Shown here: positions 6,811 to 42,325 of the stretch, piece by piece
How the letters are laid out: each line of letters starts with the position of its first letter
Numbering within the stretch: position 1 is the first letter of the stretch
DNA from: a plasmid
Sequence record: NZ_LR134454.1
Strand: one strand, 5' to 3'
Length of the DNA stretch: 64,000 nucleotides
Program-made: the position numbers and the translations under genes
The notes under the pieces: generated by a model
Databases searched by the model: none
The model's input: only the letters and a program-made list of their open reading frames with translations
Told to the model about the DNA's origin: nothing

Positions 6811-7913
6811 AGCTCGTGAACGTACTCGGCGTCGCGTTCTTCACCCTGGTGTTGTGCTGGCGCATCGACCGGCTCTACCGCGCGAAGGCCGGGATCCAGG
6901 CCGTCGCGGTCACTGTCGCCATCGCCGCGCTGACGCTCGCCGTGCTCCTGCTCGGCTCGCCGATCGCGCCCACCATCGACGGTGCGTTGTGGCGGGGCGC
7001 CTCCCGCCTCGGCGGCTACGCCTCGCTCGCCCTGGGCGTCGCCGCGTTGGCCGTCGCCTTCTTCTACGGCCCCACCGAATCGGCCCGCCAACGTCGCGCG
7101 GGGATGGAGGCCATCCCGCTCATCGCCGCGGTCGTCGGCCTGTCCGTCGCCATGAACGTGACGCCGCCGTCGCTGCGCGACGCGAGCCTCGACACCCTCA
7201 CCGTGCAGGAACTGGGCTTCGCCGTCTTCTTCGTCATCGCCGGCGGCTATCTGATGTACGGGCTCGCGGACTGCGTCCTCTCGCTGACCCGGCTCATGCC
7301 CTTCGCCGACGGCTACCTCACGACGTCGCTGCGGCTCATGTCCGCGGGCCTCGCGATCACCGCCGTCGGCTCCCTCGCGCAGGTCGCGTTCGTGCTCACC
7401 AGCGCGGGCCACGTGGCCTCCTGGCCGGTCCTGCTGAGCCTGTCGCAGGCCTGCACCGCGGGCGGCATCCTGCTGTTCGTCGTGGGCCTGAGCTACCCGG
7501 GCGTGCGCGGCTTCGTCGTGCAGATGCAGTACCGCAAGAAGCACCGCCGGGACTACAAGCGGCTCGAGCCGCTCTGGACGCTGCTCACCACCGCGGTCCC
7601 CGAGGTCGTGCTCGATGCGGGTAAGGCGCGCCGCGACCCGCACCTGCGCTTCCAGCGCCGGGTCGTCGAGATCCGCGACGTGCTGGTCCAGCTCAGCCCG
7701 TACCTGCCCGACGACTTCGGCGACGGCGTGCCCGAGGAGAACGTGCACAACCTGCTCGTGGCGATCGACCTGCGCAACGAGGCCGGGGCGGCGCCGGCAC
7801 CGTCGAGCATGGTGCTTCCGCCCGACGGCCCCTCCATCGACGACGACGCCGCCCCGCTCCTCGTCCTGTCGGACGCGGTCGGGGCGACGCCGGCGGAGGA
7901 ACTGCAGATCTAG
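6807..7913 (+). CDS. polytopic membrane protein with cytoplasmic C-terminal domain (possibly MAB_1171c/DUF6545-type)
   Basis: GTG start overlaps the upstream stop (GTGA at 6807–6810), indicating translational coupling. Eight or more predicted TM helices, followed by a basic and conserved-looking C-terminal segment YRKKHRRDYKRLEPLW…. Confidence 0.6.
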   Translation: MKLVNVLGVAFFTLVLCWRIDRLYRAKAGIQAVAVTVAIAALTLAVLLLGSPIAPTIDGALWRGASRLGGYASLALGVAALAVAFFYGPTESARQRRAGMEAIPLIAAVVGLSVAMNVTPPSLRDASLDTLTVQELGFAVFFVIAGGYLMYGLADCVLSLTRLMPFADGYLTTSLRLMSAGLAITAVGSLAQVAFVLTSAGHVASWPVLLSLSQACTAGGILLFVVGLSYPGVRGFVVQMQYRKKHRRDYKRLEPLWTLLTTAVPEVVLDAGKARRDPHLRFQRRVVEIRDVLVQLSPYLPDDFGDGVPEENVHNLLVAIDLRNEAGAAPAPSSMVLPPDGPSIDDDAAPLLVLSDAVGATPAEELQI

Positions 7914-7992
7914 CGCGGAGCCATCCGAATGGCTGCGATCCCGCGGCCATTCGGGTGGCCGAGCAGGTCTAGCGCGGAGCCATCCGAATGGC
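7909..7992. repeat. 25-bp perfect direct repeat (tctagcgcggagccatccgaatggc) duplicating the 3' end of the SDR gene, copies at 7909–7933 and 7968–7992
   Basis: Seen directly in the sequence. Copy 1 contains the stop of the + membrane gene. Copy 2 contains the stop of the − SDR gene. Confidence 0.8.
7925..7954. terminator. intergenic hairpin (9-bp stem ccgaatggc/gccattcgg, 12-nt loop) between convergent genes
   Basis: Inverted repeat at 7925–7933 and 7946–7954. There is no U-tract, which is typical for high-GC actinobacteria. Confidence 0.3.
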
Positions 7993-8727
7993 CCCGTCCA
8001 TGCGGATCGTCTCGCCGTTCATGTAGTCGTGCTGCGAGAGGAAGTACGCGAGATCGGCGTACTCGGACGGCTCGCCCAGACGCTGCGGGAACGGGACGCC
8101 CGCCTCGAGGGTCTGCTTGAACTCCGGGGTCACGCCCGCGAGCATCGGGGTGTTGATGATGCCCGGCGCGATGGTGTTCACGCGGATGCCGAACTGCGCC
8201 AGGTCGCGCGCGGCGGTGATGGTCATGGCGTGCACGCCGCCCTTGGAGGCGGTGTAGGCGATCTGGCCGATCTGGCCCTCGAAGGCCGCGACCGAGGCGG
8301 TGTTGACGATGAGGCCGCGGGAGCCCTGCTCGTCGACGGCCTCCTGCTTGCTCATCTGGTCGGCGGCCAGGCGCATCACGTTGAACGTGCCCACGAGGTT
8401 GATGTTGATGACCGTCTGGAACAGGTCCAGCGCGTGCGGGCCGTTCTTCGACAGGATGCGGCCGGCCCAGCCGACGCCGGCGCAGTTGACGGCCACGCGC
8501 AGCGGGCCGGCCTTGACGGCCTCGGCGATCGCGGCGAGGACCTCGTCCTCCTTGGTCACGTCGGTCGCGACGAGGTGCACGTTCTCGACCGGGGTCGCCT
8601 TGTCGATCGACGGCTGCAGGTCGAGGCCGAAGACGGTGGCGCCCGCATCGGCGAAACGCTTCGCGGTGGCGGCGCCGAGGCCGGATGCGCCACCGGTGAC
8701 GATGACGGAGGAGCCGGAGACGTCCAT
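7969..8727 (-). CDS. SDR-family oxidoreductase (3-hydroxyacyl-CoA dehydrogenase type-2-like)
   Basis: TGGASGLG Rossmann motif. YxxxK catalytic motif (YTASK). Confidence 0.85.
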   Translation of the reverse strand: MDVSGSSVIVTGGASGLGAATAKRFADAGATVFGLDLQPSIDKATPVENVHLVATDVTKEDEVLAAIAEAVKAGPLRVAVNCAGVGWAGRILSKNGPHALDLFQTVININLVGTFNVMRLAADQMSKQEAVDEQGSRGLIVNTASVAAFEGQIGQIAYTASKGGVHAMTITAARDLAQFGIRVNTIAPGIINTPMLAGVTPEFKQTLEAGVPFPQRLGEPSEYADLAYFLSQHDYMNGETIRMDGAIRMAPR

Positions 8728-38083: not shown

Positions 38084-38981
38084 GGGCGCCGGTTCCGAGT
38101 TCGGCGTGGTCGCTGCATCCGAGGGGTCCGGCGCTGCTGCGGCGGCGCCGGGGCTCGAGGTGCTCGGCGCGGCGCCGATCCTGGTCGCGAGCGACGTCGA
38201 CGGCACGCTCGTCGACGACCATGAGCGCCTGACACTGCGGACGCACGTCGCCGTGAACGCGGTGCGCGACGCCGGCGGCCATTTCGTGCTCGCCACCGGC
38301 CGCCCGCCGCGGGCCGTTGACCCGATCGCCGACCAGCTCGACTTCGCGCCGCTGGCCGTGTGCGCGAACGGCGCGGTGCTCTACGACACCGGTTCGGGCC
38401 GGGTGGTCTCGGCGTCGCTGATGTCGCCGGAGCTGCTGGAGACCGTCGCCGACCTCGTCCGCCGGCTGCTGCCCGGCGCCGGCTTCGCCGCCGAGCGGGT
38501 CGCGCACGGCGAGCACGACACCGCGACGCCGCGGTTCGCCGCGTCGACCGGGTACCAGCACGCCTGGCTCGAACCCGACACCGTCACCGCCGCCGACGCC
38601 GAGGTCCTCGCCCACCCCGCCGTGAAGCTCCTGGTCCGGCAGCCGGGCATGACCTCCGACGAGATGCACGCCCGCATCGCCCCGCACCTGGAGGGCCTCG
38701 CCGACGTCACCTACGCCACGAACAACGGGCTCATCGAGTTCCACGTCCCCGGCGTCACCAAGGCCACCGGCATCCAGCTGGCGATCGAGCACCTCGGCCT
38801 TACCGGGGACCTCCGCACCGCCGCGTTCGGCGACATGCCCAACGACGCCGAGATGCTGCGCTGGGCGAGCATGGGTGTCGCGATGGGCAACGCCCACCCG
38901 TTGGCCCGCGGCGCCGCGAACACGGTGACCGCGACCAACCTCGATGACGGCGTCGCCCGGGTGCTCGAGCGCTGGTTCTAG
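38076..38981 (+). CDS. Cof-type HAD-IIB family hydrolase
   Basis: DxDGT motif (VASDVDGTLVDD). C-terminal GDMPND motif. Overlaps the acyltransferase stop. Confidence 0.8.
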   Translation: MPEGAGSEFGVVAASEGSGAAAAAPGLEVLGAAPILVASDVDGTLVDDHERLTLRTHVAVNAVRDAGGHFVLATGRPPRAVDPIADQLDFAPLAVCANGAVLYDTGSGRVVSASLMSPELLETVADLVRRLLPGAGFAAERVAHGEHDTATPRFAASTGYQHAWLEPDTVTAADAEVLAHPAVKLLVRQPGMTSDEMHARIAPHLEGLADVTYATNNGLIEFHVPGVTKATGIQLAIEHLGLTGDLRTAAFGDMPNDAEMLRWASMGVAMGNAHPLARGAANTVTATNLDDGVARVLERWF

Positions 38982-39003
38982 CCCGTTCGACGGTGCGCGA
39001 CGC

Positions 39004-39067
39004 ACATCTTTCGAAGCGTTCTGTGACGGAACCCGCTCGGTTCCTCGCAGAACGCTTCGAAAGATGT
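39004..39067. repeat. 64-bp palindromic element, copy A (arms acatctttcgaagcgttctg / cagaacgcttcgaaagatgt, nested ggaacc…ggttcc in loop)
   Basis: Seen in the sequence. The 20-bp arms are perfect. The right arm contains the first in-frame ATG (39064) of the DUF559 ORF. Confidence 0.85.
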
Positions 39068-39954
39068 CGGTGGGGGATCCGATCTCGGCGCTGGTGCGTC
39101 CAATGGGTATGGGGGTCCCCACACGAGAGTTGGTTCCGTACGCGACGCCGTACGAGATCCGTGCTCGATACCAGCAGGTGATCCGCGGTGTGCGCATGCC
39201 CGCGGGTCGGCCGGTGACGTTCCGCGACCTGATCGACGCGGCTCTGCTGCTGTATCCCGACGCCGTGTTCTGCGGGTGGACCGCCGCGGCCCTGCACGGC
39301 GTCGCGTACTGCGCCGACAGGCCGATCGAGGTCTGGTTTCCGCTGCCCCGACGACGGCAGGGGATCGTCATCCGCGGCGGCGCCATGCCCGATGCGGACG
39401 TGATCGTCGTCGACGGCCTCCGGCTCACGACGGGCGCCCGCACGTTCGTCGACATCGCCCGTTTCACCGACGGTGACGATGCCGTCGTCGGCGCGGATCA
39501 GTGCCTGCGGGTGCGCGACGACGGACGGTCCGTCACGACGGTGCAGGACGTCGCCGACTACCTCGACGCCCACGCGCACCTGCACCGGTCGCGTCGAGTG
39601 CGCGCCGTGCTCGCCGAGGCCGACGGAGGAGCCGAATCGCCACCCGAAACGCATCTGCGACTGCTACTCCATCGGGCCGGTCTCACCATGTTCGCCACGC
39701 AGATCGTCATCGACGGTGGCCGCTACCGCCTCGACCTCGGCGCGGACGAGTACAAGGTCGCCGTCGAATACGACGGCCGCGATCACGCCGATCCAGGGCA
39801 ACAGAGTCTGGACGCGACTCGTCGCAACACTCTGCGGCACGACTACGGCTGGGAGGTCATCGTGGTCACCGCGAAGATCCTGTCCGAGGGACGTGACGAG
39901 ATGCTCCGCCAGGTGCGGTCCGCCCTGGATGAGCGTGCACACGCGGCGGCATGA
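39064..39954 (+). CDS. DUF559 endonuclease-domain protein (second copy). Start is uncertain, 39064 or 39103
   Basis: C-terminus GGAESPPETHLRLLLHRAGL…VEYDGRDHAD…WEVIVVTAKIL matches the DUF559 pattern. Flanked by the two 64-bp palindromes. Confidence 0.65.
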   Translation: MSVGDPISALVRPMGMGVPTRELVPYATPYEIRARYQQVIRGVRMPAGRPVTFRDLIDAALLLYPDAVFCGWTAAALHGVAYCADRPIEVWFPLPRRRQGIVIRGGAMPDADVIVVDGLRLTTGARTFVDIARFTDGDDAVVGADQCLRVRDDGRSVTTVQDVADYLDAHAHLHRSRRVRAVLAEADGGAESPPETHLRLLLHRAGLTMFATQIVIDGGRYRLDLGADEYKVAVEYDGRDHADPGQQSLDATRRNTLRHDYGWEVIVVTAKILSEGRDEMLRQVRSALDERAHAAA

Positions 39955-40018
39955 ACATCTTTCGAAGCGTTCTGCGATGAACCGGGCACGATTCGTCGCA
40001 GAACGCTTCGAAAGATGT
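39955..40018. repeat. 64-bp palindromic element, copy B (arms acatctttcgaagcgttctgcga / tcgcagaacgcttcgaaagatgt)
   Basis: Seen in the sequence. The 23-bp arms are perfect. It starts immediately after the DUF559 stop (39952–39954). Confidence 0.85.
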
Positions 40019-40057
40019 GGAGCTGCATGTGCGTGAACCCGCGCCGACCCGGCACCG

Positions 40058-40101
40058 GGTGTGACTGATGTGACAAATGTTGCTTACGTGACGAATGTTG
40101 C
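40058..40101. promoter_or_regulatory. direct repeats of GTCACA on the minus strand (TGTGAC…TGTGAC…CGTGAC) plus AATGTTGC x2 in a low-GC promoter region
   Basis: ggtgtgactgatgtgacaaatgttgcttacgtgacgaatgttgc, about 80–120 nt upstream of the SpoIID/LytB gene. This resembles direct-repeat boxes of OmpR-family response regulators such as MtrA. Confidence 0.3.
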
Positions 40102-40180
40102 AGATGGTGTTAGTCTCGACCTCACGTTGAGCTTTGCCGTTCCCTGGCACGGCTCACCTGCGTCGAGCTAAGGAGAAGCC

Positions 40181-42325
40181 ATGCCCGTGTGGATCGACGG
40201 CGGTCCTCGTCGCCGCCGCGGACGGCGTACCGTCGCGCTCGCGCTGCTCCCGGCCCTGGCCGTGGGCGGCGCCGCTGCGCTGCTCAGCACCACGAACATC
40301 GTCGGCGACCCCGAACTGGCCGCCGGCAGCGACGTGACCTTCACCGGCCAGGGCAACGGCCACGGCCGCGGCCTGGGGCAGTGGGGCGCCTTCGGCTACG
40401 CGAAGGCCGGCTGGAAGGCCGAGCAGATCGTCGCCCACTACTACGGCGGCTCCCAGCTGGCCCGCGCCGATGTGAAGCTGCCCGTCCGCGTCCAGCTCAC
40501 CACCCAGAAGGCGGCGAACGTGCTGGCCCCGGCCGGTGCCAAGATCGGCGACCAGCCCGTCGCGCCCGGTCAGGCCGTGCGCCTCGAGGGCGGGAACGCC
40601 GTCATCACCACCGGCTGCAACGGCCCGGTCGTCAAGACCGTCCCCGCCGGCGAGGACGCGACGATCTCGCCGCTCAACGCGGAGGCGGGCCGCCCCGTCG
40701 GCGAGCTCCTGACGTTCTGCGGCTCCAACGCCGCCTACCGCGGTGCGATCGCGGCCAAGGACGGCAAGGTCTTCAACGTGGTCACGATCGAGGACTACGT
40801 CCGCGGCGTGGTCCCCGTCGAGAGCAAGGTCGAATGGGCCGACCAGGGCGGCTACGAGGCCCTGCGCGCGCAGGCCATCGCGGCCCGCTCGTACGCGCTG
40901 GCCGAGGGCGCCAAGCGCGGCGACCGCTACAACGACACCCAGGACTCGCAGGTCTACGGCGGCGCCGGCAAGGAGGATCCGCGCACCGACAAGGCCGTCG
41001 CGAGCACCGCCGGCCTGGTCATGGCCAAGAACGGCTACGCCGTCTCCACCGAGTTCTCCAGCTCCACCGGCGGCTACACCGCGGGCGGCGACTTCACGGC
41101 GGTCAAGGACGACGGCGACGTCGTCTCGCCGTTCAAGAACTGGACCCAGAAGGTCCCCACGTCGAAGATCGCGCAGGAGTTCGGCGTCGGCGCGTTCAAG
41201 TCGATCCGCGTGGTCAAGACGCAGTCGGCGCAGGCCGGCCGCGTCGAGGCCGTCGAGATCGTCGGCGCGAACCGCACCGTCACCGCGAAGGGCGACGAGG
41301 TCCGCAAGAAGCTCGGCCTGCGCTCGGACTGGTTCACCATCGACGGCCAGGCCCCGGCGTCGGCCCCCGCACCGGGCGCCCCGAGCGCCCCCGGCGCGGC
41401 CACGGCACCGTCGAGCGCGACGCAGGCGCCGGTCCCCGGGCGCGTCGTGGACCAGCCGATCGTCGCGGCCCCCGTCGACCCGTTCAACCCTGTCCCGACC
41501 GCCCCGAACGCCGCGCAGACGGCCCCGACGGGCGCGACGACCCCCACCGCCGCGGCCCCGACGGCCGGCACCGTCGCCGCGGCCCCGGCCGCCCCCGCGG
41601 CGCCCGCCGTCCCGACGGTGCCCGGCGCCGCCCCGGCGGTCGCGGCCGCCGGATCCCCCGCGGTCCCCTCGGCGCCCGCCGCGGCCCCGGCAGCACCCAC
41701 CGCGCCGGCAGCGCCCGCGATCCCCGGCATCCCGGCGCCGCCCGCCGCGTCGGTCGCGGCCGCCGGCGTGCAGGCCGTGACCGGCAAGGCCGCGGTCGAG
41801 GCCGCGTACGCCGCCGCCGGCGGCGAGAAGGGCACGCTCGGCCGCGCCGTCGCGAACCCGATCGCGTTCCCCGACGGCTCGATCCTGCAGTCGTACCAGA
41901 ACGGCACCATCTACTACTCGAAGGCGAACGGCGCCCAGGTCGTCCCGTCGGGCGTCTCCGCGCCCGCCACGCTGCTCAACTGGGCCACGGCCTTCGCCGC
42001 GGGCGGCGCACCGAGCCTGCCGCCGCTCCCGCTGCTCAACCTGATCCCGGGCTGGGGCGACGTGGTCGGCATCAACCCGACCGCCGCCGACACCCCGGCC
42101 GGCGTCCCCGCGGTGCCCGTCACCCCGGGCGACACGTCCGCGGCCGCCACCCCCGGCTCGAGTACGCCTGCGGCGCCCGCCGCGCCGTCGGCCCCGTCCA
42201 CCCCGGGTGCGCCGGCCGCTCCCGCGGCCCCGGCGACCACCGCACCCGCCGCCCCGGCGGCACCCTCGGCCCCGGCGGGATCCACCCCGCTCGCGGTCCC
42301 GACGGTGCCGAACGCCCCGGCTTAG
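40181..42325 (+). CDS. SpoIID/LytB-domain cell-wall protein with Pro/Ala-rich linker and C-terminal LGFP-like repeat
   Basis: N-terminal signal/TM, SpoIID region, long PAPA linker, then GTLGRAVANPIAFPDGSILQSYQNGTIYYSKANGAQVV (LGFP-like). RBS AAGGAG. Confidence 0.8.
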   Translation: MPVWIDGGPRRRRGRRTVALALLPALAVGGAAALLSTTNIVGDPELAAGSDVTFTGQGNGHGRGLGQWGAFGYAKAGWKAEQIVAHYYGGSQLARADVKLPVRVQLTTQKAANVLAPAGAKIGDQPVAPGQAVRLEGGNAVITTGCNGPVVKTVPAGEDATISPLNAEAGRPVGELLTFCGSNAAYRGAIAAKDGKVFNVVTIEDYVRGVVPVESKVEWADQGGYEALRAQAIAARSYALAEGAKRGDRYNDTQDSQVYGGAGKEDPRTDKAVASTAGLVMAKNGYAVSTEFSSSTGGYTAGGDFTAVKDDGDVVSPFKNWTQKVPTSKIAQEFGVGAFKSIRVVKTQSAQAGRVEAVEIVGANRTVTAKGDEVRKKLGLRSDWFTIDGQAPASAPAPGAPSAPGAATAPSSATQAPVPGRVVDQPIVAAPVDPFNPVPTAPNAAQTAPTGATTPTAAAPTAGTVAAAPAAPAAPAVPTVPGAAPAVAAAGSPAVPSAPAAAPAAPTAPAAPAIPGIPAPPAASVAAAGVQAVTGKAAVEAAYAAAGGEKGTLGRAVANPIAFPDGSILQSYQNGTIYYSKANGAQVVPSGVSAPATLLNWATAFAAGGAPSLPPLPLLNLIPGWGDVVGINPTAADTPAGVPAVPVTPGDTSAAATPGSSTPAAPAAPSAPSTPGAPAAPAAPATTAPAAPAAPSAPAGSTPLAVPTVPNAPA

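Follow-up and report, generated by a model that had tools for sequence, protein, structure and literature searches.

The stretch of DNA analysed here, 64,000 nucleotides (nt) of sequence record NZ_LR134454.1 (henceforth the window), carries on its plus strand a putative nuclease gene (39103..39954) that is enclosed by two copies of a near-palindromic repeat, which we designate fam1. Counted from a conserved M-G-M-G start, the gene encodes 283 residues and ends with a TGA stop codon at 39952-39954. Palindrome copy A (39004..39067, not assigned to a strand) consists of a left arm at 39004-39026, an 18-bp spacer at 39027-39044 and a right arm at 39045-39067, while copy B (39955..40018, likewise unstranded) has its left arm at 39955-39977, its spacer at 39978-39995 and its right arm at 39996-40018. 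A first-pass annotation of this DNA had proposed two flanking palindromes with shared arms and differing loops, and both features were borne out at these coordinates: the arms read ACATCTTTCGAAGCGTTCTG(C/T)GA and its complement, and the 18-bp centres are unlike. Its description of each copy as a perfect 64-bp palindrome did not hold, as both are near-palindromes with 23-nt arms around an 18-nt centre, the arms being perfect in copy B and containing one G.T mismatch in copy A. Copy A begins 22 nt past the stop codon of an upstream HAD gene and ends 36 nt ahead of the likely nuclease start, and the first base of copy B directly follows the TGA at 39952-39954, confirming that this copy sits right behind the gene.

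Both copies stand out from the rest of the window. The 64 kb contain four occurrences of the 20-nt arm ACATCTTTCGAAGCGTTCTG, two in each copy, as against none in 100 dinucleotide shuffles, and no hairpin with arms of at least 23 nt at 93% or higher complementarity was found elsewhere in the window. As single strands, copy A and copy B are predicted to fold with energies of -55.0 kcal/mol (z = -9.1) and -57.7 kcal/mol (z = -11.1), respectively. An Rfam scan of 38800-40300 yielded no family, returning only sub-threshold look-alikes of microRNA hairpins, and a terminator scan of the same interval gave 0 terminator-like sites and no U-tract signature; a scan for sigma-70 promoters found none.

The encoded protein is identical to Tsukamurella tyrosinosolvens WP_170181047.1 / SEB67459.1, and its AlphaFold model (mean pLDDT 90) resolves into two parts, an N-terminal one of ~190 residues and a C-terminal one of ~100 residues. 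The N-terminal region (39103..39672, plus strand) is AbiEi-like, comprising a winged-helix DNA-binding domain and an AbiEi C-terminal-type domain: it matches Streptococcus agalactiae AbiEi (PDB 6y8q) in Foldseek with a probability of 1.00 and E = 2.8e-4, it is recognised by the AbiEi models of PADLOC (E = 1e-8), and it carries a precomputed Pfam hit to PF09407. The C-terminal region (39673..39951, plus strand) is a nuclease domain of the Vsr-like / DUF559 / EDxHD type with a PD-(D/E)XK fold, matching Pfam DUF559 (E = 4e-5) and MTES_1575. In Foldseek this domain superimposes on the catalytic domain of I-Bth0305I (PDB 3r3p) with a TM score of 0.72-0.78 and a root-mean-square deviation of 2.6-3.2 A, a likeness to a homing endonuclease that agrees with the earlier suggestion of a selfish or mobile cassette, and it also matches the DUF559 protein NGO0050 (PDB 3hrl). 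Among 30 homologs, the residues D224, E235, D250, R253 and W263 never vary, and Y236, D237 and H241 seldom do; the E-x-D-x3-H-x-D signature and further positions of the catalytic core are invariant or nearly so. A search of NCBIfam with the nuclease gave no family match, and Pfam found in it neither a transposase domain nor a Vsr (PF03852) hit.

Between copy A and the conserved start lies a leader (39068..39102, plus strand) whose motifs GGATCC and GTGCGTCCAA show nucleotide-level conservation in orthologs and in the paralogs L005 and L006. Since these motifs stand in a different frame relative to the open reading frame (ORF) in L005, we treat the leader as non-coding; its sequence probably represents a promoter or operator region. 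This bears on the proposal that the first ATG of the gene lies in the right arm of copy A, where an RNA hairpin would hide it. An ATG is indeed present there, at 39064, and an annotated alternative start uses it (ORF 39064-39954, 296 residues, coordinates including the stop codon), but homologs begin at a conserved M-x-M-G that corresponds to window position 39103 or 39109. Moreover, the sequence ...AAAGATGT containing the 39064 ATG is part of the palindrome consensus and is also found in solo copies of the repeat that have no ORF. Occlusion of the start codon is unlikely, given a conserved start 36-42 nt past the hairpin, an upstream ATG that is simply repeat consensus, and the shifted leader frame of L005.

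The bracket recurs throughout the family. At the orthologous locus both fam1 copies are present in T. sputi, T. spumae, T. ocularis and a metagenome-assembled genome (MAG), and each of the five Tsukamurella paralog types examined is bracketed by a repeat pair of its own: fam1 encloses the window gene and these four orthologs, fam2 encloses L005 and L124, fam3 L006 and L122, fam4 L117, and fam5 L118. The Arthrobacter homologs L120 and L121 are bracketed too. We scored a locus as bracketed when the similarity between its upstream and downstream flanks exceeded the 99th percentile of a cross-locus control, and applied this test to the 69 loci whose flanks could be used, most of them metagenomic relatives at 29-39% identity. 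A bracket was present in 43 of the 69, as compared with 1 of 165 other Tsukamurella ORFs, which passed marginally; the supposition that the bracket is no chance arrangement and goes with the nuclease gene therefore stands. The bracketing repeats have a median length of 63 bp, a median arm of 22 nt and a median spacer of 17 nt, at least one copy forms a significant hairpin in 32 of the 43 loci, and flanking copies occur in either orientation. With a protein subfamily of 6,633 clusters at 50% identity (E <= 1e-3), these data suggest that a nuclease together with a cognate palindromic repeat forms a system that is widespread in Actinobacteria and follows the same logic as the REPIN/RAYT systems.

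Beyond the bracket, fam1 is dispersed, with roughly 8 sites or more in each genome. A scan for the arm pattern, covering one genome per species, retrieved 25 Tsukamurella stretches from 10 genomes in addition to 4 chance matches in unrelated taxa. T. tyrosinosolvens was not among the matches, even though the window has four exact ones, its representative being seemingly absent or masked, and its copy number was estimated at ~8 sites from the chromosome pieces of strain NCTC13231 in PLSDB. (These pieces, NZ_LR134446-LR134469, which carry pur, gat and pcrA genes, are filed there as "plasmids", as is the 11.85-Mb Nonomuraea gerenzanensis chromosome NZ_LT559118.1.) Most matches are solo copies with no DUF559 homolog within the 8-kb locus, located mostly 1-40 nt past the stop codon of an unrelated gene and often between convergent genes; in the RefSeq annotation of NCTC13231, solo copies lie 1, 7 and 8 nt past stop codons. 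Solo copies with the very arms of copy A are present in at least 10 Tsukamurella genomes. The first-pass annotation had reasoned that its case would fall if the palindrome occurred at many unrelated intergenic sites with no DUF559 gene. The solo copies are just such sites, and the association nonetheless survives at the level of the family, in that each paralog examined has its own bracketing repeat. Other families have solo copies as well: 8-9 for fam4, 1-3 for fam5, and 2 for fam3 plus one in L027. Copies of the Arthrobacter L120 repeat reside on both large replicons of the strain that carries it, and the L121 repeat has extra matches that were not separated from its own flanking units.

The pattern of conservation within fam1 is informative about the type of site. 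At one intergenic region, between an MpaB-family gene and a branched-chain aminotransferase (BCAT) gene, a solo copy occupies the same place in T. sputi, the MAG and T. tyrosinosolvens, and 45 of its 46 arm positions are identical in the three species, whereas the remaining intergenic DNA is full of substitutions and indels. Length is equally constrained, with 33 of 35 copies measuring exactly 64 nt. Across these 35 copies pairing amounts to 95% at positions 1-23, which are invariant, and to 55% at positions 24-29, against 53% in shuffles; accordingly, a covariation test for RNA structure gave no signal, the arms being invariant and the spacer pairing at shuffle level. When arm mismatches are oriented to the sense strand of the upstream gene, 17 of 30 break pairing. 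G.T mismatches outnumber A.C mismatches by 10 to 3, a strand asymmetry that we considered as a sign of RNA structure and set aside as too weak. Because the arm sequence is conserved rather than base-pairing as such, the alignment favours a double-stranded protein site over an RNA hairpin: fam1 has the signature of a bipartite site, two invariant 23-bp inverted half-sites around a fixed 18-bp spacer of free sequence. The centres are flipped between orthologous solo copies (L011 vs L036), and the orientation of flanking copies, inverted or direct, was uninformative as a diagnostic, both arrangements occurring.

Two further observations concern solo copies and their surroundings. A separate GC-rich hairpin (GCGGCCCGCACCGAATCCGGTGCGGGCCGC) lies ~40-90 nt beyond the solo fam1 copy at the MpaB/BCAT convergent intergenic region (L131, L011 and L036), and may be the actual terminator at this site. 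In T. conjunctivitidis (L027 915-1065) a fam3-type solo copy (minus strand, ~915-981) stands ~20 nt from a fam1 solo copy (1002-1065) in the same intergenic region.

The nuclease gene itself is a single-copy gene at a fixed locus. An acyltransferase gene and the Rv3813c-like HAD hydrolase gene lie upstream, and a SpoIID-domain gene, glf, glfT2, a PAP2 gene, ubiA and aftB lie downstream; the same neighbours are found in at least five species and on every contig carrying the gene, so the mobile cassette that the first-pass annotation had envisaged shows no sign of recent movement. The fam3 paralog is also syntenic between species. No AbiEii (DUF1814 nucleotidyltransferase) toxin gene was found adjacent to the nuclease gene, no methyltransferase gene neighbours it, and no recombinase gene lies within 10 kb on either side; the unit is single and forms no array. 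Viral contigs yielded a single DNA match, due to chance, and a single protein match, weak and partial; the system is therefore not phage-borne.

The gene looks dispensable and also selfish, the latter as the earlier annotation had guessed. T. tyrosinosolvens, T. sputi and T. spumae have an intact gene; in T. ocularis (L014 3541-4431) it is interrupted by an in-frame stop codon, and in MAG T2.bin.43 (L013 6830-7702) it is truncated by an 82-bp 3' deletion that removes the GW..V..VT motif, with both flanking palindromes kept in the latter two. In T. conjunctivitidis (L008) the gene is exactly absent, the HAD and SpoIID genes are adjacent, and one palindrome is left between them. An empty site of the kind that the earlier annotation had proposed to look for thus exists in a sister species. 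Since T. conjunctivitidis is closest to the gene-bearing T. sputi, with the empty site nested beside it, loss is the likelier direction, and the absence is best read as loss by recombination between copies A and B.

Signs of exchange and turnover are seen in the repeats as well. The two flanking fam3 copies of L122 are 100% identical to each other yet differ from those of the ortholog, a sequence relationship that indicates exchange between the two flanking copies. Copy A of T. sputi (L004 5941-6004) carries a matching two-base change, from TTCGAA to TTTCAA in one arm and TTGAAA in the other, that keeps complementarity perfect; this looks like templated inter-arm correction or quasi-palindrome template switching, not four independent mutations. 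At a metagenomic locus sampled from two organisms (L085 vs L091), neighbouring DNA is 85% identical and the gene 71%, yet the repeats are unalignable, and repeats therefore turn over with the gene in place. We also looked for any gene-plus-repeat unit recurring in other genomic surroundings and found no transposition event; two candidate relocations (L083 vs L091, and L058 vs L056) were rejected as the same loci with neighbouring indels.

From the observed anatomy of the unit, its recurrence across the family, the dispersal and arm conservation of the repeats, the decay and loss of the gene and the domain folds, we infer binding, cleavage and who moves what. The reading we prefer, which in our judgement stands about an equal chance of being right or wrong, is that the nuclease recognises the palindromes bracketing it and that both form one system, a REPIN/RAYT-like arrangement built on an unrelated enzyme. 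Known relatives of both protein parts bind DNA of matching dimensions: the target of AbiEi is a pair of 23-bp inverted repeats separated by 3 bp, that of the larger Rv2827c consists of paired 23-bp repeats with a gap of 13 bp (PMC7319586), and I-Bth0305I is a homodimeric homing endonuclease with a footprint of ~60 bp (PMC3239194). As the 23-bp half-sites match AbiEi binding and the whole element matches the I-Bth0305I footprint, a dimer of the window protein could cover one whole palindrome. In such a complex the AbiEi-like parts would read both arms, and the Vsr/EDxHD-type nuclease domains would be positioned above the spacer, which they would nick or cut. Copy A, lying a short way ahead of the start codon, probably doubles as an autoregulatory operator. 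Because the flanking copies are repeats of each other, recombination between them, or cleavage and rejoining, could remove the gene and leave one palindrome, the state seen in T. conjunctivitidis, and the reverse reaction would insert a circle of the gene plus one palindrome into a solo site. Solo copies might accordingly serve as integration sites for such circles; they may be spread or maintained in trans by the nuclease, or may be remnants of collapsed units. A far broader proposition, which we advance tentatively and regard as rather less probable, is that thousands of actinobacterial AbiEi-like/EDxHD nucleases partner an unrecognised class of palindromic repeats. Each enzyme would read a ~60-bp site made of two ~23-bp half-sites and cut its spacer, thereby generating, homogenising or moving its cognate palindromes, and would integrate and excise its own gene at these palindromes with neither a transposase nor a recombinase.

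Several observations weigh against a single nuclease-palindrome system. No flank repeat was detectable at 26 of the 69 loci tested, nor at the Nonomuraea homolog L119. Copy numbers are ~3-10 per family in the sequence examined, as compared with tens to hundreds for typical REPINs, and solo copies that abut stop codons also fit a terminator or 3'-end role unrelated to the nuclease. The fam1 arms stay conserved in T. conjunctivitidis, where the gene has been lost from the locus, and arm conservation may thus not depend on the gene in cis. Finally, no second near-identical copy of any of the genes was found at another palindrome site, and no insertion polymorphism was seen among solo copies, which are old and at orthologous positions; mobility is for this reason something that we infer rather than observe.

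One alternative is a purely regulatory arrangement, in which nothing is mobile: copy A would be the autoregulatory operator of an AbiEi-like repressor-nuclease fusion, copy B an auxiliary operator (forming a loop with copy A that silences a toxic gene) and/or a terminator, and the solo copies additional regulon sites or terminators. AbiEi-family proteins do repress their own promoters via 23-bp inverted repeats (PMC7319586), only 36 nt separate copy A from the start codon downstream of it, conservation attaches to arm sequence and not to pairing, no recent movement was detected, and the bracket has been kept over deep divergence. We nonetheless consider this account unlikely, as it leaves unexplained why copies of each bracketing family are strewn over the 3' ends of unrelated housekeeping genes, why a repressor should have a conserved nuclease active site, and how a precise gene-sized deletion came to leave one copy, and the AbiEii toxin partner is missing. 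Slightly more doubtful still is a homing or integration cassette, whereby the nuclease cuts a resident palindrome resembling a repetitive extragenic palindromic (REP) element and the leader and ORF are copied or integrated there, duplicating a palindrome whose families exist independently of the gene. Such an origin would account for the likeness of the catalytic domain to I-Bth0305I, for the existence of an empty one-palindrome site, for the intact, degenerate and lost states at the locus, which fit the life cycle of a homing gene, and for leader motifs that are conserved between paralogs when the palindromes are not. It is difficult to reconcile with one gene copy per family per genome in the face of several apparently intact target sites, with a locus fixed across species, with an empty site that is most parsimoniously a loss, with repeats that change in place (L085 vs L091), and with related genes having related repeats, the L124 repeat sharing motifs with fam2 and fam3.

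Two other explanations fare worse. Control at the RNA level, with an mRNA hairpin hiding the start codon or with 5' and 3' hairpins setting mRNA stability, could draw on the great predicted stability of the hairpins, which fold slightly better on the sense strand, and on the excess of G.T over A.C mismatches (10 to 3) on the sense strand of the upstream gene. We regard it as very improbable: the conserved start lies 36-42 nt downstream of the hairpin and the ATG at 39064 belongs to the repeat consensus, 17 of the 30 oriented mismatches abolish pairing altogether, the spacer shows no selection for pairing, and the sole compensatory change seen, in copy A of T. sputi, has the look of a templated event at the DNA level. 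Least credible of all is coincidence, that is, a generic REP or terminator element of which two copies happen to flank the gene. Solo copies beside stop codons at many unrelated sites are what a generic element would give, but the only two such elements in 64 kb both flank this gene, there is neither a U-tract terminator signature nor an Rfam match, and the recurrence of the bracket with different sequences at 43 of the 69 homolog loci, when just 1 of 165 control genes has one, effectively refutes it.

Compared with known systems, the proposed nuclease-palindrome pair shares several features of its organisation with REPIN/RAYT systems (REPtrons) of Proteobacteria, so far as these are described in the cited accounts (PMC3116915, PMC3337134, bioRxiv 10.1101/2022.05.22.493013). 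In both, a dispersed intergenic palindrome is composed of two inverted units and a spacer, a gene that is single-copy and vertically inherited has members of its own repeat family on both sides, one genome can contain several paralogous gene-repeat pairs, and the gene is sometimes lost while the repeats remain. By contrast, the enzyme here is an AbiEi-like/Vsr-EDxHD PD-(D/E)XK nuclease and RAYT is an HUH/Y1 transposase of the IS200 type; copies number about ten and not tens to hundreds, the host is an actinobacterium, and the flanking copies may be oriented either way. The fam1 arms start with ACATC and finish with GATGT, and lack at their ends the GTAG or CGTC tag as defined in PMC3733652. 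With an unrelated enzyme, a low copy number and an actinobacterial host, the window system therefore falls outside REPIN/RAYT proper.

The protein relatives differ in other ways. Like the EDxHD homing endonuclease I-Bth0305I, the window protein combines a Vsr-like catalytic domain bearing the E..D..H.D signature with extra DNA-binding domains, and the long pseudo-palindromic site on which the I-Bth0305I homodimer leaves its ~60-bp footprint (PMC3239194) resembles the palindrome here. The window gene, however, is free-standing and intergenic, outside any intron or intein; rather than being interrupted by the gene, the presumed site is present in full on either side of it and also occurs at many other loci, and no homing was observed. 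With the antitoxin-repressors AbiEi and Rv2827c of type IV AbiE systems it shares the N-terminal two-domain fold and paired 23-bp inverted repeats at a fixed gap upstream of its own gene (PMC7319586), but a nuclease domain is fused in place of an AbiEii (DUF1814) partner, the gene is followed by a second site, and solo sites exist elsewhere. Integron cassettes (an ORF with its attC site) likewise have a ~60-bp imperfect palindrome right after the stop codon and a gene between two sites, whose loss leaves one, as is the case for Campbell-type integration in general; they differ in their tyrosine recombinase (IntI), their arrays and the extrahelical bases of attC, whereas the sites here are near-perfect palindromes scattered singly. 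Unlike the single-domain PF03852 enzymes of Vsr very-short-patch repair, which go with a dcm methyltransferase, the window protein has a 190-residue N-terminal extension, no PF03852 match and no methyltransferase neighbour. Unlike insertion sequence (IS) elements or miniature inverted-repeat transposable elements (MITEs), the unit has no known transposase domain and no target-site duplication, none being apparent by eye at ~14 of the solo-copy borders, and unlike an intrinsic terminator the stem is followed by no U-tract.

In the full-text literature we found no paper that connects nucleases of the DUF559 or AbiEi-like type with palindromes, whether flanking or dispersed, or that describes such repeats in Tsukamurella or Actinobacteria; the association of nuclease and repeat is apparently previously undescribed. 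Few unexplained genes are commoner in Actinobacteria than those for DUF559 "endonuclease domain-containing" proteins, and the pairing of each subfamily member, as it appears, with its own ~60-bp palindromes, which are also scattered in the genome, offers the family a concrete and testable DNA partner. If the nuclease and its palindromes do form one system, the REPIN/RAYT concept would extend to high-GC Gram-positive bacteria with an unrelated enzyme, and a class of conserved intergenic palindromes in actinobacterial genomes would be explained. Should the nucleases read their flanking sites, they would constitute a natural library of long-site enzymes with targets that the genome sequence directly reveals; should a nuclease move the palindromes and its own gene, we would be dealing with a mobile or site-specific DNA system of a new kind, functionally parallel to REPIN/RAYT and independently evolved.

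Some minor features of the repeats and their surroundings deserve mention. Upstream of the homolog in L121 (Arthrobacter sp. ERGS1:01), positions 1215-1331 hold three tandem direct copies of a 31-nt half-site unit and one inverted copy, and a single long hairpin built from the same arms lies downstream (2311-2401), making this a multi-site form of the bracket. The 65% identical homologs L005 and L124 lie between the same PNPOx and DUF202 neighbours in opposite orientation and adjoin different genes, an Fe-ADH gene in one and an APH gene in the other; their repeats have the outer arms TTGCAGGT/ACCTGCAA in common, and an inversion or rearrangement at the palindromes is possible. Elsewhere in the window, a different small repeat at 7906-7996 contains AGATCTAGCGCGGAGCCATCCGAATGGC twice in direct orientation with an inverted copy, GCCATTCGG, between them, and can form alternative hairpins.

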